Source: an uncultured Nitrospirales bacterium | Lineage (GTDB): Bacteria; Hydrogenedentota; Hydrogenedentia; Hydrogenedentales; GCA-2746185 | DNA length: 64,000 bases | Direction of reading: 5' to 3' | Assembly (NCBI GenBank): GCA_964467615.1 | Contig: CAYXRK010000001.1 | Span: 14,008 to 78,007 of the forward strand | Shown here: one piece after another, positions 1 through 57,464 of the stretch | How the letters are laid out: every line of letters begins with the position of its first letter | Position numbering within the stretch: the stretch's first letter is position 1 | Program-made: the position numbers and the translations under genes | Notes under the pieces: generated by a model | Database searches by the model: none | Told to the model about the DNA's origin: nothing | The model's input: only the letters and a program-made list of their open reading frames with translations

Positions 1-5
1 AGGAT

Positions 6-48
6 GCAAGGATGCAACTTCTTATAGAAGATTGCATCCTTGCACGCT
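6..48. repeat. Near-perfect 13-17 bp inverted repeat (tgcaaggatgcaa ... ttgcatccttgca) around a 5-13 nt loop, immediately upstream of a TTGACG -35-like hexamer and the first small ORF. Operator-like palindrome or hairpin.
   Basis: Seen directly: revcomp of positions 6-18 equals 36-48. The inner cttc/gaag extends the stem with one bulge. The local sequence is AT-richer than the window average. Confidence 0.5.
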
Positions 49-96
49 TGACGAAAACACCCTTGAAATCGAGGTATTTGAGGAAGGACTTCGGGT

Positions 97-420
97 ATGA
101 ACATTGATGAACTTTTCGACGCGCTCATCGTCGCTGGCATCGACCTAGTGCCGGACGGAACCGAGCACTTGTTCGCCCGTCCGCAACCCGGCAAGGCGAT
201 ACCGCCTGAAATCGTCGAAGCATTGCGAACGTTGAAACCCTTGGTACTCACGCCCGCCTTGCAAAGCTACATCCGCGTGCTGGCCGCATGGCGTCCGGCG
301 AACGACCGAGACCTACCACCCGCGCCGATGTTCAAGGCACGGCCCGAACGTCCGCTGGCATGGGCGGCATGGTGGACGGCTGTTGAGACAGTCCGCCGTC
401 AACGCAAGGCGGCGCGATGA
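97..420 (+). CDS. hypothetical protein (107 aa)
   Basis: ORF with GGAAGGA Shine-Dalgarno 8 nt upstream. The stop overlaps the start of the next ORF (ATGA). No family recognised. Confidence 0.4.
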   Translation: MNIDELFDALIVAGIDLVPDGTEHLFARPQPGKAIPPEIVEALRTLKPLVLTPALQSYIRVLAAWRPANDRDLPPAPMFKARPERPLAWAAWWTAVETVRRQRKAAR

Positions 421-680
421 CAGCCATGAACAACACCATCCCGGCAACCGAGGAGAACCCTCTCGTCGAGCAAGTCATCCGGCGACTGGCCGAGGTACGC
501 GGCACGGGCGACTCACGAGCGGCGGAGATCGGCGCGGTATGGGATCGGTTTATCTTCCGGCTCATGGCATCGCGGAACCTGGACAGACCTACGGCGCATC
601 GCGTCATCGAGATCGAAATGCCCGGACTACATCAGGCGCACATTCGGGCAATCAACGGAATCGAACCGGGTTTACCATGA
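417..680 (+). CDS. hypothetical protein (87 aa), translationally coupled to the preceding ORF
   Basis: ATGA overlap with the 97..420 ORF. No recognisable domain. Confidence 0.35.
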   Translation: MTAMNNTIPATEENPLVEQVIRRLAEVRGTGDSRAAEIGAVWDRFIFRLMASRNLDRPTAHRVIEIEMPGLHQAHIRAINGIEPGLP

Positions 681-974
681 ACATGACGGCAACCCGAAAG
701 CGGCGACATTGGCCGGACGCGCCTGCATCGCGGCAAAGGCGACACGCCCATAGCGCCGTGTTCGAGCTACAACCGCGTGAGGCTTAGCAAACTCGAATCC
801 GGCCATACTAGACCGCTACCGGAATGCGGATCGTCGATTGTGGGGCATCCTACGCAGTCGCATTTGGAGCGGATCGACCGATAATGAGCGAATTCCCGCC
901 GATCATCGTCGATTCGAGGGAACAGCGCCCGTTGCCAATAGCGCGTCGCCTCTCCTATGGCCGTCGAGACAAGC

Positions 975-1391
975 TCAAATCACAAGCCACTGGAAGATGC
1001 ATCCGGGTTCAACTTCGATGGCGAAATCCTCGGCGAATTGCCTGCATCCGAAGATGCAGTTGCAATATGCCTCGATTCGGATGTCGTAGAGTCCTGGTTC
1101 CAGTTGGAAGACCTGCTGTCCGCCGTTTCGGATTTCGTCTCCTTCGCACGAGGATAGGTCGCCTAAGAGATTTTCGCCCCATTCCGCGCTACCTGTTGGA
1201 GCGATATAGACGACGGCGATCACTTTACCTGAAGTGTTATGAACGGCAATTCCGGTTACACCAGTTCCGCAAATGGGATCAAGTCCTCGCGGCGGGCATC
1301 CCACGCACGCCGTGGCAATCAAGAACAGCGGAACCCACGTCAACTTGGAGAACATAACTTCGCCAAAGGGTACGACACGTCGAGTGCTCAT
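975..1391 (-). CDS. small secreted Cys-rich protein (N-terminal signal peptide MSTRRVV...LFLIATAC)
   Basis: The minus-strand ORF has a clear n/h/c signal-peptide architecture and 9 Cys. The competing plus-strand ORF (824..1357) is Arg-rich with no features. The region has lower GC. Confidence 0.35.
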   Translation of the reverse strand: MSTRRVVPFGEVMFSKLTWVPLFLIATACVGCPPRGLDPICGTGVTGIAVHNTSGKVIAVVYIAPTGSAEWGENLLGDLSSCEGDEIRNGGQQVFQLEPGLYDIRIEAYCNCIFGCRQFAEDFAIEVEPGCIFQWLVI

Positions 1392-1629
1392 AACTACACC
1401 TCCCTTGAGGTAATTCAACCTACTCCTTCGGAACGCGAGTAGTCAACGCTGAATCGCCGTCGAACCGCGCCGCACGATCCGAATCCGGCCATAGTCTGAT
1501 ACTCCCGCGCCCGCGTTCGCGTCTCCTAGGTCAACGTTGCACGTCCGTTTCACGCCCGCGACGCTGAAACCGGCCTATCGCACAACAAATCAGGCCATGG
1601 AACGACCCAGCACCGGAACGGTGGCGGCG

Positions 1630-2079
1630 CTATTTTTTCGGCAACGTGAACCGCTGACCGTAGTAGTCATCGTTAAGCTTATGAATGAGATCCTTGCTCG
1701 CTTCAAGGTCCACCTCGAGAAGTTCGCGCATCGAAATGAATCCTCTCAGACGGCTATCCTCGTCCAGCACGACCAGATGTCGAAAGTTCTTGTTCAGCAT
1801 CAGTGCCGTGGCAACGCTATGCTTTTCGTCGATGGAGACATGGAACACGTCTGTCGTCATCACTCCGGTGATTTTCGTTTCACTCGGGTCGAGGCCCTTG
1901 TGCACAACCCGTCGAAGGAGGTCTCGCTCAGAGAAGACGCCGACAATCTCGTCTCCGTCGCAAACTGCCACCGCACCAACGCCCTTTTCATACAAGTAAT
2001 CAACCACTGCTTTGACCGTAAAGCTTGAATCGACCGAGAAGGCTTCGCGCTGGCCGATCAGATCGCGAATAGTTTTCAT
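1630..2079 (-). CDS. CBS domain pair-containing protein
   Basis: Tandem CBS-like motifs (GVGAVAVCDGDEIVGVFSERDLL ... NFRHLVVLDEDSRLRGFISMRELL). AGGGGAGA Shine-Dalgarno before the ATG at 2079. Confidence 0.65.
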   Translation of the reverse strand: MKTIRDLIGQREAFSVDSSFTVKAVVDYLYEKGVGAVAVCDGDEIVGVFSERDLLRRVVHKGLDPSETKITGVMTTDVFHVSIDEKHSVATALMLNKNFRHLVVLDEDSRLRGFISMRELLEVDLEASKDLIHKLNDDYYGQRFTLPKK

Positions 2080-2685
2080 AGGTCTCCCCTTTGGCCTGGT
2101 TGATCGAAGCACAAATCAGTGTAGCACGCGGGTCGTCATCCAGCGGTGAGCTGGAGCGGCTAATTCCGTAGCACAATCCGCAACGCCCTCAACACGCCCC
2201 GGACACTCGTCCAATCCCGGCCATGTCTAACCCTTACCGCGTTCGCGCTCGCGCCGTATAGGGCATCGTAGCGCGTACAGTTCCCCGCTACGCGCGAAAC
2301 GGCCCGATCCCGCCTAAAGTATGCGCAGCGAGGTAGATCGGGTACCTGGCGCGGCGAAGGGGTGGGGTCGCGGATTCGGTTTTTCAGGCGGGCGGAGAGG
2401 CCCCAAACTTTCGTGCCAATTCTTGCGCCACTTTCGCGCCACTCGCCGGGAAAAAGAGGGGATAAATGGTGTTGCGAGAGGATAGGCAAACCGGCGTAAG
2501 TGATTGACAGCAATAGGTGGAGATAAACTACAAAACTAATACAGTCGGATTTCAAGACCGGTGCGTTACCAATTACGCTAACCCTCCGCGAATAATTGTA
2601 CCCGTGTTTCGTCGATATTCCCAAGCGGGGGACGCGCCTCGGGCCGCGGCATAGTATGATTGTCCGTTGATACCGGGGGGATTCC

Positions 2686-5600
2686 ATGGCGGGTGCGTCG
2701 CGAAAACGTCGTCGGCTAATTGCTGCGCTAGCGGTGTTCGCGGCACTGGTGCCGCTCTGGCTAGTCGCCGAGCGGTATGTGCTTCGGGTAGATCGGTACC
2801 GGCCCGCGCTCGAAGACGCAATCGCCGGCGCAACCGGGCTGTCCGCCAGCATCGAGAGGATAGAGGCCCACCTCCTCCCCTGGCCGTACGTCGCGCTGGA
2901 AAACGTGACCGTCGGTTCGGGCGATTTTTGGGCGTTCGCGGAACGCATCGATGTTCGCGGAGAGTTGCGGGCCCTCGCGCGGGGGCGGCTCGAAATCGAT
3001 CTGGTGGAGGTGAAGCGGCTTTCGGTCGTGGTGCCGCCCGATCCGGACGACATTCGCGAGCGCGTAAACGTCCTCATCGACCACCTTACGGCCCCGTCAC
3101 AGGAGGAGCCGTGGTTTTCCGAGGTGTCGGTGATCAAGGTCGAGACCGAAGATGCGGGCGTTTATCTTAAGGGAGACGCCGAGCCCGCCGCAGTCATCAC
3201 GGTAACGGGCCGCGATGTTCTTTCGGACGCAGTGCAGACTCTGATCGAGGCGCGGCTGCCCGAATATGGCGCGGACGCACGAGCGTGGACGACGCTTAAC
3301 TTTACCCTCGCGGAGCAAAACGTTTTGGCGGTCTCGGGCGAGGGCTCATTCGAAGGATTGGAGCTCGCCTCGCTGCCGCTGGACGGTCTACCGCAAATTG
3401 TCATGCACGCAGGCTTCACGCTGTCGGGCGAAAACTTCGGGAGCATTGAAGCCGCGCTCACGGGGAACACTGCCTCCGTCGACACCGGACAGATGACCGG
3501 CGAATACGCCGGCGCGCTCTGGTGGAAGGACGAAGCGCTGACGTTGAACGATTTCACGTGGATCGGACCGGACGTCAATACCGCGCTCGACTTGACGCGC
3601 CATAAGGACGGACGCATTGTCGTTTCGGTGAAGCGATTCAGCGCGCGCGCCGGCGGACTAAGCGACATTCTCGCGGGCTTGAAGTTGAAGGACGCCGAAG
3701 TGACCGCGGGCCCGGACGCGTCGTTCGCCGCAACGGACCTGTTGTTCGCCCTGGAATCCGACGACACGATTCAATTCTCCCAGGGCAACGCCGAATTCTC
3801 GGGACTCGCCCTCGCACACGCCGACGAAGGCGAACTCGCGCACGGCGTGAAGGGCCACGTCACGATTACCGATGGGACGATAGCGGTCGAAGAACTCGTC
3901 GCCGAGGGCCTCGCGCTTCACGGCAACGTCACGCCGAACCCCGGCTGGACCACGTTCGCGCTCGATCTGTCCGGCAACGCCGATCTCGCCGCCGCACGCG
4001 TCGTCAGTCTCGTGTTTCCCGATTCGGTGCATGACGCCCAAGGCGTACTAGCGATAGACCGCATCGCGGGGACTTTTGATCGAAACGGCGCGCTTCCCGA
4101 CGATCTTGTCCTCACCGCGACGGTGAACGACGGTGCCTTTCGCGTCGAGTCCGAAGACTTCACTGCGGCTTTCGAAAGCGTGAACGTTCAAGTGCGGACG
4201 GACGGAAAGACCATCGCGACGGCGGCCTCCGCGGCTTCGCCCGAACTGGGCGCGATGCATCTCGACGGCCAGTATTCGGTCGCCGATCGCCTTTGGTCGG
4301 GCGCGACGACAATTGACGTACCGAAGGCCGCGACACACTTCATTGACGACGACGAGGTGTCCGCTCGGTTAGCGGGCCTGCTCGATCAGTATGGGACCGC
4401 CGAGTGGAAGACGGACGTCCAGTTTGCGGCCGAGGACGGGGACCCAATCGAGGTCCGCGTCTCTGGGGAAAATGCTCCTATGCTCAATGGCAAGGTACTC
4501 GTGGCAACCAACGAAGAACACACGCGGTTCGGCGATGTTCACGTCGAGACTGAACTCGCGTCGGACCGGTTGCCTCGCCTGCTTCCCGAGGGCATCCGCG
4601 CCGAGGGGCCCGTGACCGTCCGGTTCGACCGAGACGCCACCGCAGGCGAATTCACGGCGACCGCGAATCTTACCGGATGCACGCTAACGACCGAAGGCGA
4701 CGTTCAGAAGCGGTTCGGTGACGAACTTCTGATCGACCTGTCCGGCCAGGCCACGGAAGGAACGTGGCGCGCCGAGAAGGGCGCCCTGACGTGCCTCGGA
4801 CAACAGTTGGACTTTATTATCGAGGACAAACGGGTCGTCGCGCCGCATTTCGACATCGCCGCCGTGGCATGGGCACGGTTGCTGCCCGAGGGCGCGTCGG
4901 CGCATGGGAGGATTTTCGGGAAGGCGGCGTTCAATCCATTCGAGGCAGACCTGACGTTCCATGATCAGGGATTTCGACTCGATGACGAGATCGTGATCGA
5001 GCGCATCAACGGTAACGTCTCGATCTCCGGTCCGTATTTAACATGCCGCGATCTGAAAATCGAAGGCGCACGTTCGGATTGCACGGTCAATGCAGGCCGC
5101 TCGGACGGCGTCTGGCGTGGCGAAGTCCGCGGCCGGACATTGGATGTGAACGCATTCGCGCCGCTCGCGGGAGCGCTTATTGGACTCGCACAATCCGGCG
5201 GGAGTCCGAAGGACGCCACGGAAAAGAGTGAGGCCGATCCCTTCGTCGGCGACTTCAACATTGCCCTGGATCAAGTGTTCTTCCGTAAGGGACGGCTGGA
5301 CAAATTCACGGCGATGGTAAACGCGCGGGAGCAAGGCGTGTTCGTGAAGGACATCCGCTGCACGCCGTACAGCGGGTCGCTGACCGGCACAATAGATTGG
5401 GTGCCTTCGAACGCGGACGAACACGAAGTGCGCGTCAGTCTCGCCTTTGACGGGGCAGACTCGCGCATCGTCGACGAGATCCTTATGAACGACGAACGAG
5501 GGTTGGACGGAATTTTCTCGGGAACGCTCGACTTCAGTTCGCCCGCTATCGAGGGCAAGGAGTCCGTCAAACGCGCAAACGGCCGCGCAGAGATTCGGGC

Positions 5601-6006
5601 GGCAAACGGTAGTCTGGGAAAAATGGGCTGGGCCACGAAACTCATTTCGGTGTTGAAGACAACGGAAATCCTCGCGTTCCGGAGGCCGGAGTTCCGCGAT
5701 AAAGGGTTGACCTACGACGACTTATCCGGTAGGCTGGAGATGGTGAATGGCGTGCTGACGCTGCGGGACGTGAAGCTCGAAAGCCCCTCCTACTCGATGA
5801 CCGCCAGGGGAACGGTGGATTTCCCGCAAGACCGGTCGGACGTCGTGGTTCGGGTGCAGCCGCTCGAGAATATCAACCGGACCGTCGGTCGAATACCGAT
5901 TATCGGAGATGCGATTCGTCAAGTGACCAAAGTCGCCCGGGTGCGCGTGAATATCACAGGGTCGCCGTACGACACATCGCAGAGCGCGCAGGAAGACAAG
6001 GAATAG
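2686..6006 (+). CDS. AsmA-family / YhdP-like giant envelope protein (1105 aa) with N-terminal membrane anchor
   Basis: N-terminal TM helix followed by an AsmA-like N-domain. The C-terminus (PLENINRTVGRIPIIGDAIRQVTKVARVRVNITGSPYD) resembles the AsmA_2/YhdP C-terminal motif. The stop TAG is immediately followed by the ATG of the next gene. Confidence 0.55.
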   Translation: MAGASRKRRRLIAALAVFAALVPLWLVAERYVLRVDRYRPALEDAIAGATGLSASIERIEAHLLPWPYVALENVTVGSGDFWAFAERIDVRGELRALARGRLEIDLVEVKRLSVVVPPDPDDIRERVNVLIDHLTAPSQEEPWFSEVSVIKVETEDAGVYLKGDAEPAAVITVTGRDVLSDAVQTLIEARLPEYGADARAWTTLNFTLAEQNVLAVSGEGSFEGLELASLPLDGLPQIVMHAGFTLSGENFGSIEAALTGNTASVDTGQMTGEYAGALWWKDEALTLNDFTWIGPDVNTALDLTRHKDGRIVVSVKRFSARAGGLSDILAGLKLKDAEVTAGPDASFAATDLLFALESDDTIQFSQGNAEFSGLALAHADEGELAHGVKGHVTITDGTIAVEELVAEGLALHGNVTPNPGWTTFALDLSGNADLAAARVVSLVFPDSVHDAQGVLAIDRIAGTFDRNGALPDDLVLTATVNDGAFRVESEDFTAAFESVNVQVRTDGKTIATAASAASPELGAMHLDGQYSVADRLWSGATTIDVPKAATHFIDDDEVSARLAGLLDQYGTAEWKTDVQFAAEDGDPIEVRVSGENAPMLNGKVLVATNEEHTRFGDVHVETELASDRLPRLLPEGIRAEGPVTVRFDRDATAGEFTATANLTGCTLTTEGDVQKRFGDELLIDLSGQATEGTWRAEKGALTCLGQQLDFIIEDKRVVAPHFDIAAVAWARLLPEGASAHGRIFGKAAFNPFEADLTFHDQGFRLDDEIVIERINGNVSISGPYLTCRDLKIEGARSDCTVNAGRSDGVWRGEVRGRTLDVNAFAPLAGALIGLAQSGGSPKDATEKSEADPFVGDFNIALDQVFFRKGRLDKFTAMVNAREQGVFVKDIRCTPYSGSLTGTIDWVPSNADEHEVRVSLAFDGADSRIVDEILMNDERGLDGIFSGTLDFSSPAIEGKESVKRANGRAEIRAANGSLGKMGWATKLISVLKTTEILAFRRPEFRDKGLTYDDLSGRLEMVNGVLTLRDVKLESPSYSMTARGTVDFPQDRSDVVVRVQPLENINRTVGRIPIIGDAIRQVTKVARVRVNITGSPYDTSQSAQEDKE

Positions 6007-9895: not shown

Positions 9896-9964
9896 GGCGG
9901 CGCGGCTCCTTGCTGCGGGACAGTTCTTTGCGGGTCGCGTATGATAGCAAAGGCTGGCCCGTCC

Positions 9965-10147
9965 TAGCCCGCGTCGCGCACCAGTGTTCGTAGCGAGGAA
10001 GTGGAGATGGTTGGTATATCAGGACTTGTTCGGTTCGGATCGGACGACAGCGTGTAGAAACACGTCGAGTTCGATCCGAGACGAAAAGTTCCGAGAGAAC
10101 GGCCATATCCGCTTCCGCAGTAGAATGGTGGTGAGCGATGCGGGCTA
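9965..10147. mobile_element. 183-bp MITE-like palindromic element, copy 1 (about 25-bp terminal inverted repeats TAGCCCGC...)
   Basis: About 93% identical to the reverse complement of 57221..57403. The termini are inverted repeats of each other. The internal sequence is quasi-palindromic. Lies in the hemB / AMP-ligase intergenic region. Confidence 0.7.
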
Positions 10148-56350: not shown

Positions 56351-57223
56351 ATGTCCATCGTATTGATGCTCAACTTGAAGGGCGGCGTCGCGAAGACGAC
56401 CAATTGCGTCGCCGTCGCCGAGGCCATGGCGGACTCCGGTCACAAGGTCCTCGTTATCGACGCGGACCACCAATGCATGGCGAGCGAACTGCTTATCGGC
56501 GAGGAGAAGTTGCTCCGCTGCGAGGTGCGCAAGAAGACGCTGCACGACATGCTCGGCGCGATGATGGACGACGAGTTTACCGAAGCCAACATTCCGCCGT
56601 ACATCGTCGAGCAAGTATCGAACATCGGCGGAGGGTACCCGAACCTTCACTTGCTGCCGTGCTCGATTCGCATCGACGAATTCCAGACGAACATGGCCAA
56701 GGCCCGCCGGGGCTTCAATACGGTCGACGAATATCGCCAGGAATTGCAGCGAAAACGGGGCGTGTTGCAGCGGTTTTTGAAGAGCAACTACGATTCCGTA
56801 CTGATCGATTGCCCGCCGAGTTTGGCCATGCAAGTCGTGGAGTTTCTCCTCATCGGCGACGCGTTCATCATCCCTTCGGTGCCGGACCGTCTTTCCGTGC
56901 GCGGATCGATTTGGCTGCTCGAGCGACTGCGCCGCCGCAACATCTCGCGCATTCAGCCGCTTGGCACGCTGTGGTCCCTCTACCGCACCCAGGCCGCGAT
57001 TCACAATCACATCATCGATCAGGCCGAGAAGGGCATCGAACCGCTCGACATCCTCCCGCGGCCTTTCCGGACGATCATCCCCAATGCGGCGCGCATCGCC
57101 GAATCAACCGAACCCGATCGGCACCCGCATACCTTCTCGTCCAAGTACTCGCCGTTCTTCGCGCAACGCTATAAACACCTCGCGAGAGAAATCCGCACGC
57201 GCCTTACGCGCATGGGGGTCTAG
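56351..57223 (+). CDS. ParA/MinD-family ATPase (orphan ParA-like)
   Basis: Deviant Walker A KGGVAKTT. Walker B VLIDCPP. Confidence 0.8.
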   Translation: MSIVLMLNLKGGVAKTTNCVAVAEAMADSGHKVLVIDADHQCMASELLIGEEKLLRCEVRKKTLHDMLGAMMDDEFTEANIPPYIVEQVSNIGGGYPNLHLLPCSIRIDEFQTNMAKARRGFNTVDEYRQELQRKRGVLQRFLKSNYDSVLIDCPPSLAMQVVEFLLIGDAFIIPSVPDRLSVRGSIWLLERLRRRNISRIQPLGTLWSLYRTQAAIHNHIIDQAEKGIEPLDILPRPFRTIIPNAARIAESTEPDRHPHTFSSKYSPFFAQRYKHLAREIRTRLTRMGV

Positions 57224-57403
57224 CCCGCATACCTCACCACCATTCTACCGCGGAAGCGGATATGGCCGTTCTCTCGAAACTTTTCGCCTCGGATCGAACT
57301 CGACGTGTATCTACATGCTGTCGTCCGATCCGAACCGAAGAAGTTCCGATATACCAACCATCTCCACTTCCTCGCTACGAATGCTGGTGAGATATGCGGG
57401 CTA
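57221..57403. mobile_element. 183-bp MITE-like palindromic element, copy 2 (inverted relative to copy 1); uses the parA TAG as its first three bases
   Basis: Reverse complement is about 93% identical to 9965..10147. Terminal inverted repeats TAGCCCGCATA(C/T)CTCACCA. Confidence 0.7.
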
Positions 57404-57464
57404 GCGCCGCGCGTGAATGCAGGGGCGCGAATGTCTTGCATCGGCCAGTAACGGGGATCCGGAT

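Follow-up and report, generated by a model that had tools for sequence, protein, structure and literature searches.

Short motifs that recur between consecutive genes may be regulatory sites, boundaries of mobile cassettes or relics of older rearrangements, and the question raised by this locus is which of these accounts for three such copies near the start of a 64,000-nucleotide stretch of DNA (the window) from an uncultured Candidatus Hydrogenedentota genome from groundwater. The original prediction listed three intergenic copies of an AATCC(C)GGCCAT motif, two of them around a lower-GC segment with a Cys-rich secreted protein, and proposed either a regulator binding site iterated across promoters or attC/att-like boundaries of a small cassette. 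All three sequences are present, two as the exact 14-mer CGAATCCGGCCATA and one as the variant AATCCCGGCCATGTCTAAC, although the positions given for them (799-812 and 1479-1492 for the former, 2216-2234 for the latter) were 1-5 nt off (corrected in Table 1). All three are also intergenic, as proposed, lying between the genes that end at 680, occupy 975-1391 and 1630-2079, and start at 2686. The analysis described here places the motif within three related non-coding repeats of approximately 85-125 bases, which occupy consecutive intergenic gaps on the border of an integrated mobile element.

Table 1. Features of the repeat locus in window coordinates.
Feature	Position	Strand	Remarks
orf107	97-420	+	Overlaps orf87; tail of the element's primase-helicase operon
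orf87	417-680	+	Overlaps orf107; tail of the element's primase-helicase operon
Repeat copy 1, partial, ~84 nt	766-849	+	Homology to copies 2 and 3 stops at 849
Exact 14-mer CGAATCCGGCCATA in copy 1	794-807	+	
Polymorphic junction	849-850	.	Contig L002 versus window
Cys-rich lipoprotein-like gene (module 1, copies 1-2)	975-1391	-	Called as a gene in contigs L001/L007
Repeat copy 2, full length	1455-1575	+	
Exact 14-mer CGAATCCGGCCATA in copy 2	1480-1493	+	
Terminator-like hairpin and T-run just past the CBS stop codon	1582-1609	-	
CBS-pair gene, 149 aa (module 2, copies 2-3)	1630-2079	-	Pfam CBS, E = 2e-19
Extended -10 of the CBS gene, TGCTACACT	2118-2126	-	Downstream of copy 3
Repeat copy 3, full length	2184-2304	+	
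Variant motif AATCCCGGCCATGTCTAAC in copy 3	2213-2231	+	
Sub-threshold tRNA-like sequence	2518-2587	-	Rfam tRNA, 25.5 bits versus a 29-bit gathering score

Considered alone, the motif is no more frequent than chance would allow. The window holds 57 repeated 14-mers, and a repeated 14-mer by itself is therefore at chance level; similarly, when up to two mismatches to the 14-mer are permitted, at least two hits are obtained in 17 of 100 shuffles. For AATCCGGCCAT at up to one mismatch, three hits were observed compared to 1.6 expected, and all three of these hits in 64 kb are on the same strand and within 800 nt. Chance is accordingly accepted for the bare 14-mer count, but not for the longer repeat family of which the 14-mer is the best-conserved block, and which the original prediction overlooked. 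Copies 2 and 3 align over 127 columns with 89 matches (70% identity) and 12 gap columns, and the local alignment between intergenic regions IG2 and IG3 scores 49, against 20.9 +/- 2.6 (maximum 30) in 404 comparisons of real sequence and 19.7 +/- 2.2 (maximum 33) in 500 dinucleotide shuffles. Copy 1, which has an exact 14-15-mer in common with copy 2, matches copy 3 in register at 22/42 positions over the 42 nt past the 14-mer (empirical per-position p = 3.8e-4), and a profile built solely from copies 2 and 3 detects it weakly, ranking it third among the hits in the window (793-849, E = 0.64). On the basis of the alignment score relative to both nulls and the register of copy 1, chance was rejected as the source of the whole family.

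The family is thus real, and it is direct and locally confined: all three copies point the same way, one in each of three successive gaps between genes, at a spacing of 686 and 733 nt, and the 64-kb window contains no further copy. Additional copies were likewise absent from 1.17 Mb around CBS homologues (80 genomes, several of them Hydrogenedentota) and from three contigs that carry CBS orthologues. The 64 kb contain only these three neighbouring copies, which have neither inverted termini nor a hairpin, and the repeats do not resemble dispersed intergenic repeats of the REP/BIME or MITE type. A MITE-like element does occur elsewhere in the window, and is clearly unlike these repeats. Between copies 2 and 3, mismatches show no codon periodicity and indels break the reading frame, and a coding repeat or leader peptide was rejected on these grounds. 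From the minus-strand ATG within the motif, ORFs run for 44, 25, and 11 codons, and MAG(F/I) is all that they have in common.

Each copy separates single genes, first the Cys-rich lipoprotein-like gene and then the CBS-pair gene. Since copies 2 and 3 share approximately 125 nt, the CBS gene is bracketed in the same way as the Cys-rich gene is by copies 1 and 2. The two genes are unrelated to each other, and similarity is limited to the intergenic parts. The Cys-rich ORF looks real, in agreement with the original prediction: it encodes 138 aa with 8 Cys residues and a hydrophobic N-terminus ending in ...LIATAC, and it has a strong ribosome-binding site, GGGAGGTG. Its product is an orphan, with only self-hits among 5.8 billion proteins and no Pfam or PHROG match. 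The lower GC content reported for the bracketed segment was recovered (55.2% at 808-1479 versus 60.6% in the window), but it is not particular to that segment, since the neighbouring 1494-2212 has 55.6%. The CBS protein, in contrast to the orphan, has Hydrogenedentota homologues of up to 76% identity. The extended -10 of its gene is conserved at the orthologous loci L004, L090, and L091, none of which has copy 3. Because orthologous CBS loci lack both copies 2 and 3, the repeats are not an ancestral part of the CBS locus. Two further candidates were rejected in this region. A decayed second CBS copy beneath the Cys-rich gene, as expected of a tandem gene duplication, was not detected by tblastn or DNA alignment, and an ERCC4-like nuclease fragment at 884-940 (+), suggested by an 'IIVDSREQ' motif, received no support from Pfam, PHROGs, or phage tblastn.

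The comparison with orthologous loci also bears on whether the repeats are simply a neutral relic, in which the similarity of copies 2 and 3 would be a decaying trace left when intergenic DNA was duplicated locally or recombined illegitimately long ago, the 14-mer of copy 1 would be largely a coincidence, and none of the three would have a function today. The chance-level frequency of repeated 14-mers is consistent with this, as are the fairly even spread of matches between copies 2 and 3 (longest exact run 8 nt), the aperiodic mismatches, and the lack of structure, Rfam family, or coding signal in the copies. However, copy 1 remains in register with copy 3 beyond the 14-mer, and the units between the repeats share nothing, unlike those of a segmental duplication. 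The copies (70%) are also more diverged than the CBS orthologues are at the DNA level (76.7%), and the orthologous loci lack the repeats although they are closer, so that the copies did not originate by duplication within an ancestral CBS locus. Additionally, a breakpoint coincides with the repeat edge, as described below. A neutral relic is considered unlikely.

The repeats are situated where a mobile element gives way to housekeeping genes. To the left, the operon that ends with orf107 and orf87 runs on past the window start, and contig L001, which extends 1.7 kb further leftward, adds part of a Toprim/primase gene and a helicase-like gene (AAA_25, 392 aa). This left flank is a mobile-element replication module, and the repeats are located at that end of an integrated primase-helicase element which carries the cargo. 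The window and the 1.7 kb of L001 cover the right part of this element. Rightward from 2686 are the housekeeping genes YhdP/AsmA, radical SAM, HemB, and Nqr. GC3 is 0.58-0.69 in the genes left of 2100 (0.58 for the Cys-rich gene and 0.63 for the CBS gene) versus 0.71-0.82 in most host genes. Among the relatives of the helicase for which the context is usable, the closest is 37% identical and belongs to a classical island (L089) with the order tRNA-Thr, tyrosine integrase (Phage_integrase), small ORFs, primase-helicase, and cargo, in which the right-hand att site would come after the cargo genes. Judging by helicases that are at most 37% identical, the element family is without close relatives. 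No relatives were obtained with a helicase query against metagenome contigs, an orf107 query against viral contigs, or an AsmA protein query against genome contigs; a 29-mer from the end of the element had no match in metagenome and viral contigs, and interval 700-2700 had none in phage and plasmid records. Tblastn with one integrase query gave no tyrosine recombinase match in the window or in the 1.7 kb of L001, and there is no integrase among the genes in the 12 kb examined to the right of the repeats.

A population variant provides an alternative junction at this boundary. Contig L002, from Hainich replicate R3, is the same as window positions 1-849 save for two SNPs at 808-809, and the CGAATCCGGCCATA of copy 1 reads as the 15-mer CGAATCCGGCCATAG in it. 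Past 849, its remaining 55 nt are unrelated to the window, and the similarity of copy 1 to copies 2 and 3 drops to background at the column where L002 diverges. Copy 1 homology therefore stops where the variant departs, as seen in one short contig (904 nt, 3x coverage, 55-nt divergent tail) that could be an assembly chimera.

These observations broadly support the att-like boundaries that were proposed originally, here as a repeat family bordering on an integrated primase-helicase element, with a breakpoint at the end of copy 1 homology. With a probability of roughly 0.4, the repeats are attachment-type junction sequences that arose by tandem accretion or module exchange. Counted in favour of this are a family that is real, co-oriented, and local, its mobile and housekeeping flanks, the GC3 values, the L002 breakpoint, the absence of copies 2 and 3 from orthologous CBS loci, and the gene order of the L089 island. 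Tandem accretion that leaves decayed att-flanked elements (cis-mobilizable elements, CIMEs) is a documented process (PMC5704250). Under this model, the copies would form one short non-coding family marking the joints at the cargo end of the element, each consisting of an element-side arm plus a crossover region. Related elements would integrate successively at one site, and older ones would decay to single-gene remnants, one made up of the Cys-rich gene and copy 2 and another of the CBS gene and copy 3, while copy 1 would be the terminus of the intact left-hand element. We infer that a site-specific recombinase made the joints; AATCC(C)GGCCAT may be the best-conserved protein-binding block of the arm, e.g. 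a recombinase or accessory-factor site, and the exchange point would be approximately 42 nt to its right, near the end of ...GGGCATC. If so, another copy of the repeat, or CGAATCCGGCCAT, is expected beyond the primase gene at the left end of the element.

Several features fit attachment-type junctions less well. The copies are only about 70% identical and contain many indels, which is far beyond the divergence typical of att direct repeats from recent integration. The similarity of copies 2 and 3 continues for approximately 40 nt rightward of where exchange is proposed, which a simple P-O-B' scheme would predict only if attP and attB had a long identity block in common. The CBS gene is widely conserved in the phylum and could be native rather than cargo. 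Finally, the sequence near copy 3 that resembles a tRNA is encoded on the other strand and overlaps no repeat. It lies 213 nt to the right of copy 3 and has a good 5' half and a degenerate, AT-rich T arm; ARAGORN finds no tRNA there, and a sigma-70-like site is nearby (2624-2595). The repeats themselves were also considered as tRNA 3'-end fragments, and this was rejected: TCGAATCC is T-loop-like but has no T-stem partner, and the tRNA model picks only the unrelated minus-strand sequence at 2518-2587. None of the 10 tRNAs in the loci examined contains the motif.

The other half of the original prediction, a regulator site iterated across promoters, would make AATCC(C)GGCCAT an operator for a DNA-binding element protein (e.g. 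orf87 or orf107), repeated between the genes of the element in the manner of phage stoperators, or alternatively the 125-nt unit a duplicated promoter or leader of the two minus-strand genes. The sites are intergenic, clustered, and in the same orientation; read on the minus strand, copy 2 precedes the start codon of the Cys-rich gene by 64 nt and copy 3 that of the CBS gene by 105 nt, and copy 2 starts directly after the terminator-like hairpin of the CBS gene, where the Cys-rich gene needs a promoter. IG2 moreover holds three motif-like sites, among them AAACCGGCC inside copy 2 (1567-1575) and the one-mismatch copy AATCAGGCCAT (1588-1598, +) inside the terminator-like hairpin. However, this proposal was not supported. 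Copy 1 is between convergent genes and has no minus-strand gene downstream, and the CBS gene has its own conserved promoter downstream of copy 3, which is retained at loci that lack this copy. A consensus scan found no sigma-70-like -35/-10 pair within any copy, and the motif-adjacent hexamers TAGACA and CAGACT, read by eye, each miss one invariant -10 position. Neither orf87 nor orf107 has a recognisable DNA-binding domain, the best match being ANTAR at E = 0.038, below threshold. Regulation also leaves unexplained why a polymorphic breakpoint falls where copy 1 ends, and cis-regulatory repeats are considered an unlikely explanation.

Folding of the copies is relevant both to a structured RNA and to integron-type sites. 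Two or three paralogous sRNAs or cis-acting leaders would account for a short hairpin that is kept in copies 2 and 3 (GTAGCG...CGCTAC versus GTTGC...GCGAC) with one two-sided pair change (A-U to U-G, plus strand), and RNAalifold gives 2-4 two-sided pair changes; with only two full copies, such covariation has almost no power. On the other side, folding energies are no better than those of shuffles on both strands, minimum-free-energy structures differ between copies, no copy has a meaningful Rfam match even at E <= 10 (and the whole window has none at gathering thresholds), and no copy is bracketed by a promoter and an intrinsic terminator. A structured non-coding RNA family, riboswitches included, is thus very improbable. 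An integron-type cassette array without a nearby integrase (CALIN, as defined in PMC4889954), with the copies as attC sites and the two genes as cassettes, would be in line with the length of the copies (~85-125 nt), their position between single, co-oriented, compact genes approximately 700 nt apart, and the orphan status of one gene, as is the case for many cassette genes. The attC suggestion was supported neither by sequence nor by structure. A regular-expression search of 650-2700 on both strands found no RYYYAAC...GTTRRRY pair 50-160 nt apart and only a lone GTCTAAC in copy 3 at 2225. The copies form no hairpin or imperfect palindrome (MFE z-scores from -1.2 to +1.9), and their consensus fold is a weak multibranch structure. 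Each of the two genes is equipped with expression features of its own (ribosome-binding site, promoter, or terminator), and the recombinase searches described above were negative. The CALIN explanation is therefore close to refuted.

A different cassette system is conceivable but improbable: asymmetric recombination sites of ~90-125 nt, without an attC-like hairpin, at which an island-borne recombinase would capture and exchange single self-expressed genes. The Cys-rich and CBS genes would then be two cassettes, and L002 would carry a different first-position cassette. Only in this case would the repeats be of wide interest. Being most likely attachment-type junctions, rather than an integron or a genome-wide regulatory motif, they are locally informative and ordinary in kind. 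To our knowledge, mobile DNA in the phylum Hydrogenedentota is essentially uncharacterised. If accretion at attachment-type sites is correct, the repeats delimit a hitherto undescribed Hydrogenedentota primase-helicase integrative element on its right side and mark the joints within it, and they would show how single accessory genes (one for an orphan secreted protein, another perhaps for a CBS regulator) are stacked beside the chromosome. Such repeats would be of use for island annotation in metagenome-assembled genomes, with no concept changed.

Repeats of this kind have partial counterparts in several known systems. Stoperators, which recur in roughly 20-30 copies between the genes of cluster A mycobacteriophages, are asymmetric repressor sites of 13-14 bp. 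The motif described here is similarly asymmetric and ~14 bp long, and it recurs between genes of a mobile element without a change of orientation. In contrast to stoperators, there are only three copies, their orientation is independent of the transcription of flanking genes, they are within ~85-125 nt of extended homology, and no repressor was identified. In mosaic phages, module-boundary ('linker') sequences and promoter-stem-loop cassettes mediate gene shuffling by homologous recombination between near-identical sequences, usually with a recognisable promoter and/or stable hairpin. The present repeats show neither of the latter, but they too are short conserved intergenic sequences beside small accessory genes of a variable mobile region, at exchange breakpoints. 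Integron attC sites and CALINs (PMC4889954) likewise have repeats of ~60-140 nt between single co-oriented genes, some of them orphan, and need no nearby integrase; they differ in having mutually complementary R'' (RYYYAAC) and R' (GTTRRRY) core sites around a stretch of about 55-140 nt and an imperfect-palindrome fold with paired R and L boxes, and in that the genes studied here carry their own expression signals. A complete integron, unlike a CALIN, also requires intI and attI next to the array.

The remaining comparison is with the CIMEs and ICESt1-type islands that are produced by tandem accretion (PMC5704250). Here, the right part of an element is seen, with no integrase, target gene, or left-hand att site; the copies are ~70% identical with indels rather than near-identical cores, the remnants are single genes of ~0.7 kb, and the host is an uncultured Hydrogenedentota bacterium with an element family that lacks close relatives. 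As in those islands, however, co-oriented direct repeats stand between an intact element and the short, gene-poor remnants that adjoin the chromosomal backbone, the repeat contains a short, highly conserved block, and a population variant changes the sequence at the repeat edge.

The 14-mer and its variant do occur as the original prediction had reported, twice exactly and once in altered form, at positions 1-5 nt away from those it had given (Table). All three copies (3/3) fall between genes on a map drawn from ORFs, Pfam, and the gene calls of public contigs with identical sequence. Recurrence of the bare 14-mer is no more than chance: the window holds 57 repeated 14-mers, at least two hits arise in 17 of 100 shuffles when up to two mismatches are allowed, and the 11-mer core with at most one mismatch has three hits against 1.6 expected.

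The motif is the most conserved part of a longer stretch of homology, which the prediction had missed. The gap downstream of the CBS-pair gene (IG2) aligns with the gap upstream of it (IG3) over 127 columns, with 89 matches and 12 gap columns. The local alignment score is 49, versus 20.9 +/- 2.6 (maximum 30) when real sequence from the window is compared (n = 404) and 19.7 +/- 2.2 (maximum 33) after dinucleotide shuffling (n = 500). The 42 nt following the first 14-mer match c3 in the same register at 22/42 positions (empirical per-position p = 3.8e-4) and c2 at 17/42 (p = 0.04), and AACCGCG is common to c1 and c2 upstream of the motif. Therefore, the gap alignment and the extension of c1 together define three direct copies.

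Coordinates of the repeat copies and neighbouring features
Feature	Position	Strand or orientation	Remark
13-bp inverted repeat	5-44		TGCAAGGATGCAA-N14-TTGCATCCTTGCA; 1717-1756 in L001
orf107	97-420	+	
orf87	417-680	+	
c1	about 766-849	direct	partial copy
14-mer in c1	794-807	+	exact CGAATCCGGCCATA
Antisense ORF	884-1357	+	begins MSEFPPIIVDSREQRPLP
138-aa Cys-rich gene	975-1391	-	
c2	1455-1575	direct	IG2/IG3 alignment
14-mer in c2	1480-1493	+	exact CGAATCCGGCCATA
149-aa CBS-pair gene	1630-2079	-	
CBS extended -10	2118-2126	-	TGCTACACT
c3	2184-2304	direct	IG2/IG3 alignment
Variant motif in c3	2213-2231		AATCCCGGCCATGTCTAAC
tRNA-like sequence	2518-2587	-	
Sigma-70-like site	2595-2624		TTGGGA-18-TACAAT
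AsmA/YhdP-like gene	2686-6006	+	
184-nt element	9964-10147		
184-nt element	57220-57404	inverted	

Nothing further turned up in the 64-kb window with nhmmer profiles built from the three copies, in 1.17 Mb of sequence surrounding CBS homologues, several of which belong to Hydrogenedentota, or in phage and plasmid collections, and pattern scans for the element's end in metagenome and viral contigs were empty. No collection searched contains a close relative of the repeat or of its element. The absence of further copies also led to the rejection of a dispersed repeat. A coding repeat was likewise rejected, as mismatches lack codon periodicity and indels disrupt the frame, as was a decayed gene duplication, as no CBS trace lies under the Cys-rich gene. 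That the copies are a neutral relic of local duplication is doubtful, albeit plausible. Separately, a 184-nt intergenic element is present in two inverted copies (91% identical); it is a long imperfect palindrome with termini TAGCCCGCAT...ATGCGGGCTA (DNA fold -50.9 kcal/mol, z = -8.2), MITE-like and unrelated to the three-copy family.

The window is part of a metagenome-assembled genome of Candidatus Hydrogenedentota, recovered from the groundwater of Hainich well H51. In L001, a public contig reaching 1.7 kb left of the window, orf107 and orf87 are directly preceded by part of a Toprim/primase gene and a gene for a 392-aa AAA_25 helicase-like protein, and the best phage/plasmid matches of the helicase are primase/helicase genes (about 25-32% identity). 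These genes and matches mark the left flank as a mobile element's replication module. The 13-bp inverted repeat, which is perfect, falls within the 3' end of the gene for the helicase-like protein, shortly before orf107, and could be a replication origin or operator. Starting at 2686, the genes to the right have housekeeping functions (YhdP/AsmA, radical SAM/SPASM, amidohydrolase, HemB, AMP-binding enzyme, and Nqr subunits), so that the repeats lie where mobile DNA gives way to resident DNA. GC3 is 0.58-0.69 in genes left of 2100 versus 0.71-0.82 in most host genes and 0.64 in one. The predicted "lower-GC cassette" is weak: 808-1479 does lie below the window (55.2% versus 60.6% GC), yet the interval that follows is similarly low (55.6%). 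The Cys-rich protein matches only itself among 5.8 billion proteins, and the CBS protein is conserved across the phylum (identity up to 76%).

The nearest helicase relative whose surroundings could be used (L089, 37% identity) lies in a classical island, ordered tRNA-Thr, tyrosine integrase, small ORFs, primase-helicase, and cargo genes. By analogy, the integrase and target of such an element would be expected at its left extreme, and its right-hand junction past the cargo. This remote relative of the element (L089 7914-9002) is integrated beside tRNA-Thr(TGT), with the integrase 86 nt downstream of the tRNA, and the contig stops short of the right junction. Within the window, the tRNA-like sequence scores 25.5 bits against an Rfam threshold of 29 bits and has no ARAGORN call; its acceptor, D, and anticodon arms are normal in appearance, its T arm is degenerate and AT-rich, and the sigma-70-like site directly precedes it. 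The sequence could be a decayed tRNA where island and chromosome meet.

A sequence variant marks the edge of c1. L002, a contig from another replicate of the same well, equals window 1-849 save two neighbouring SNPs (808-809) that directly follow the 14-mer; with them, the sequence matches c2 exactly over 15 nt. It then continues (850-904) with 55 nt, GTGAGCCGCGAGCGACGAAAGACAGACATGATCCTCGACCGC, absent from the window and all fetched loci, which may open a different gene (ATGATCCTCGAC...). Column 849 is where the similarity of c1 to c2 and c3 falls to background (22-24/42 before, 11-14/40 after); between c2 and c3 it persists (26/40). The repeat edge therefore coincides with a point at which two versions of the element differ in the DNA they carry. 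Because L002 comprises only 904 nt at 3x coverage, it might be a chimeric assembly. Just beyond this edge, the first ~18 residues of the antisense ORF, which runs opposite the Cys-rich gene, resemble an ERCC4-type nuclease N-terminus; this identity was rejected for lack of support in Pfam, PHROGs, and phage tblastn. The remainder is Arg-rich, as an antisense reading frame would be, and the ORF may be the stub of a truncated gene.

It is unlikely that the copies are an operator or regulatory repeat specific to the element. That c2 begins right after the terminator-like hairpin of the CBS gene, and that IG2 holds three motif-like sites, favour this reading weakly, but no copy contains a sigma-70-like site, c1 is flanked by convergent genes, and the CBS gene is served by an extended -10 of its own, kept in three orthologous loci that lack c2 and c3 entirely. 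The proposed regulator site iterated across promoters is not supported. The extended -10 (consensus TG(C/A)TA(G/C)ACT, about 35-40 nt upstream of the start codon) is conserved across four orthologous Hydrogenedentota loci (window, L004, L090, and L091) whose neighbouring genes otherwise differ.

The suggested attC boundaries are not supported. Under published attC and CALIN definitions (PMC4889954), neither strand has an RYYYAAC/GTTRRRY pair at suitable distance, folding of the copies does not exceed that of shuffles (z from -1.2 to +1.9), the predicted structures differ between copies, and one tblastn query revealed no recombinase in the window or L001; an integron-type array is extremely improbable. 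A structured RNA is scarcely less so, with no Rfam match at gathering thresholds, nothing meaningful at E <= 10, and only one shared short hairpin, in which a single base pair has changed on both strands of the stem. A cassette system of another kind than the integron, exchanging single genes at asymmetric sites of about 90-125 nt, is improbable.

Tentatively, at a probability of roughly 0.4, the copies are attachment-type junction sequences. Successive integrations at one site would pile up such junctions, and the older elements would then decay. This reading fits best because a short, well-conserved block lies within moderately diverged, co-oriented copies, unrelated single genes separate them, they lie where the cargo of an integrative-type element ends, the breakpoint of a variant coincides with the edge of one copy, and orthologous loci lack the repeats. 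Confidence is limited because the copies are far more diverged than typical att repeats, c2/c3 similarity continues past the proposed exchange point, and the key polymorphism comes from one short contig. Tandem accretion leaving att-flanked remnants is documented (PMC5704250), and direct repeats that mark off modules at one end of a genomic island are a well-known kind of feature that would not surprise a specialist.
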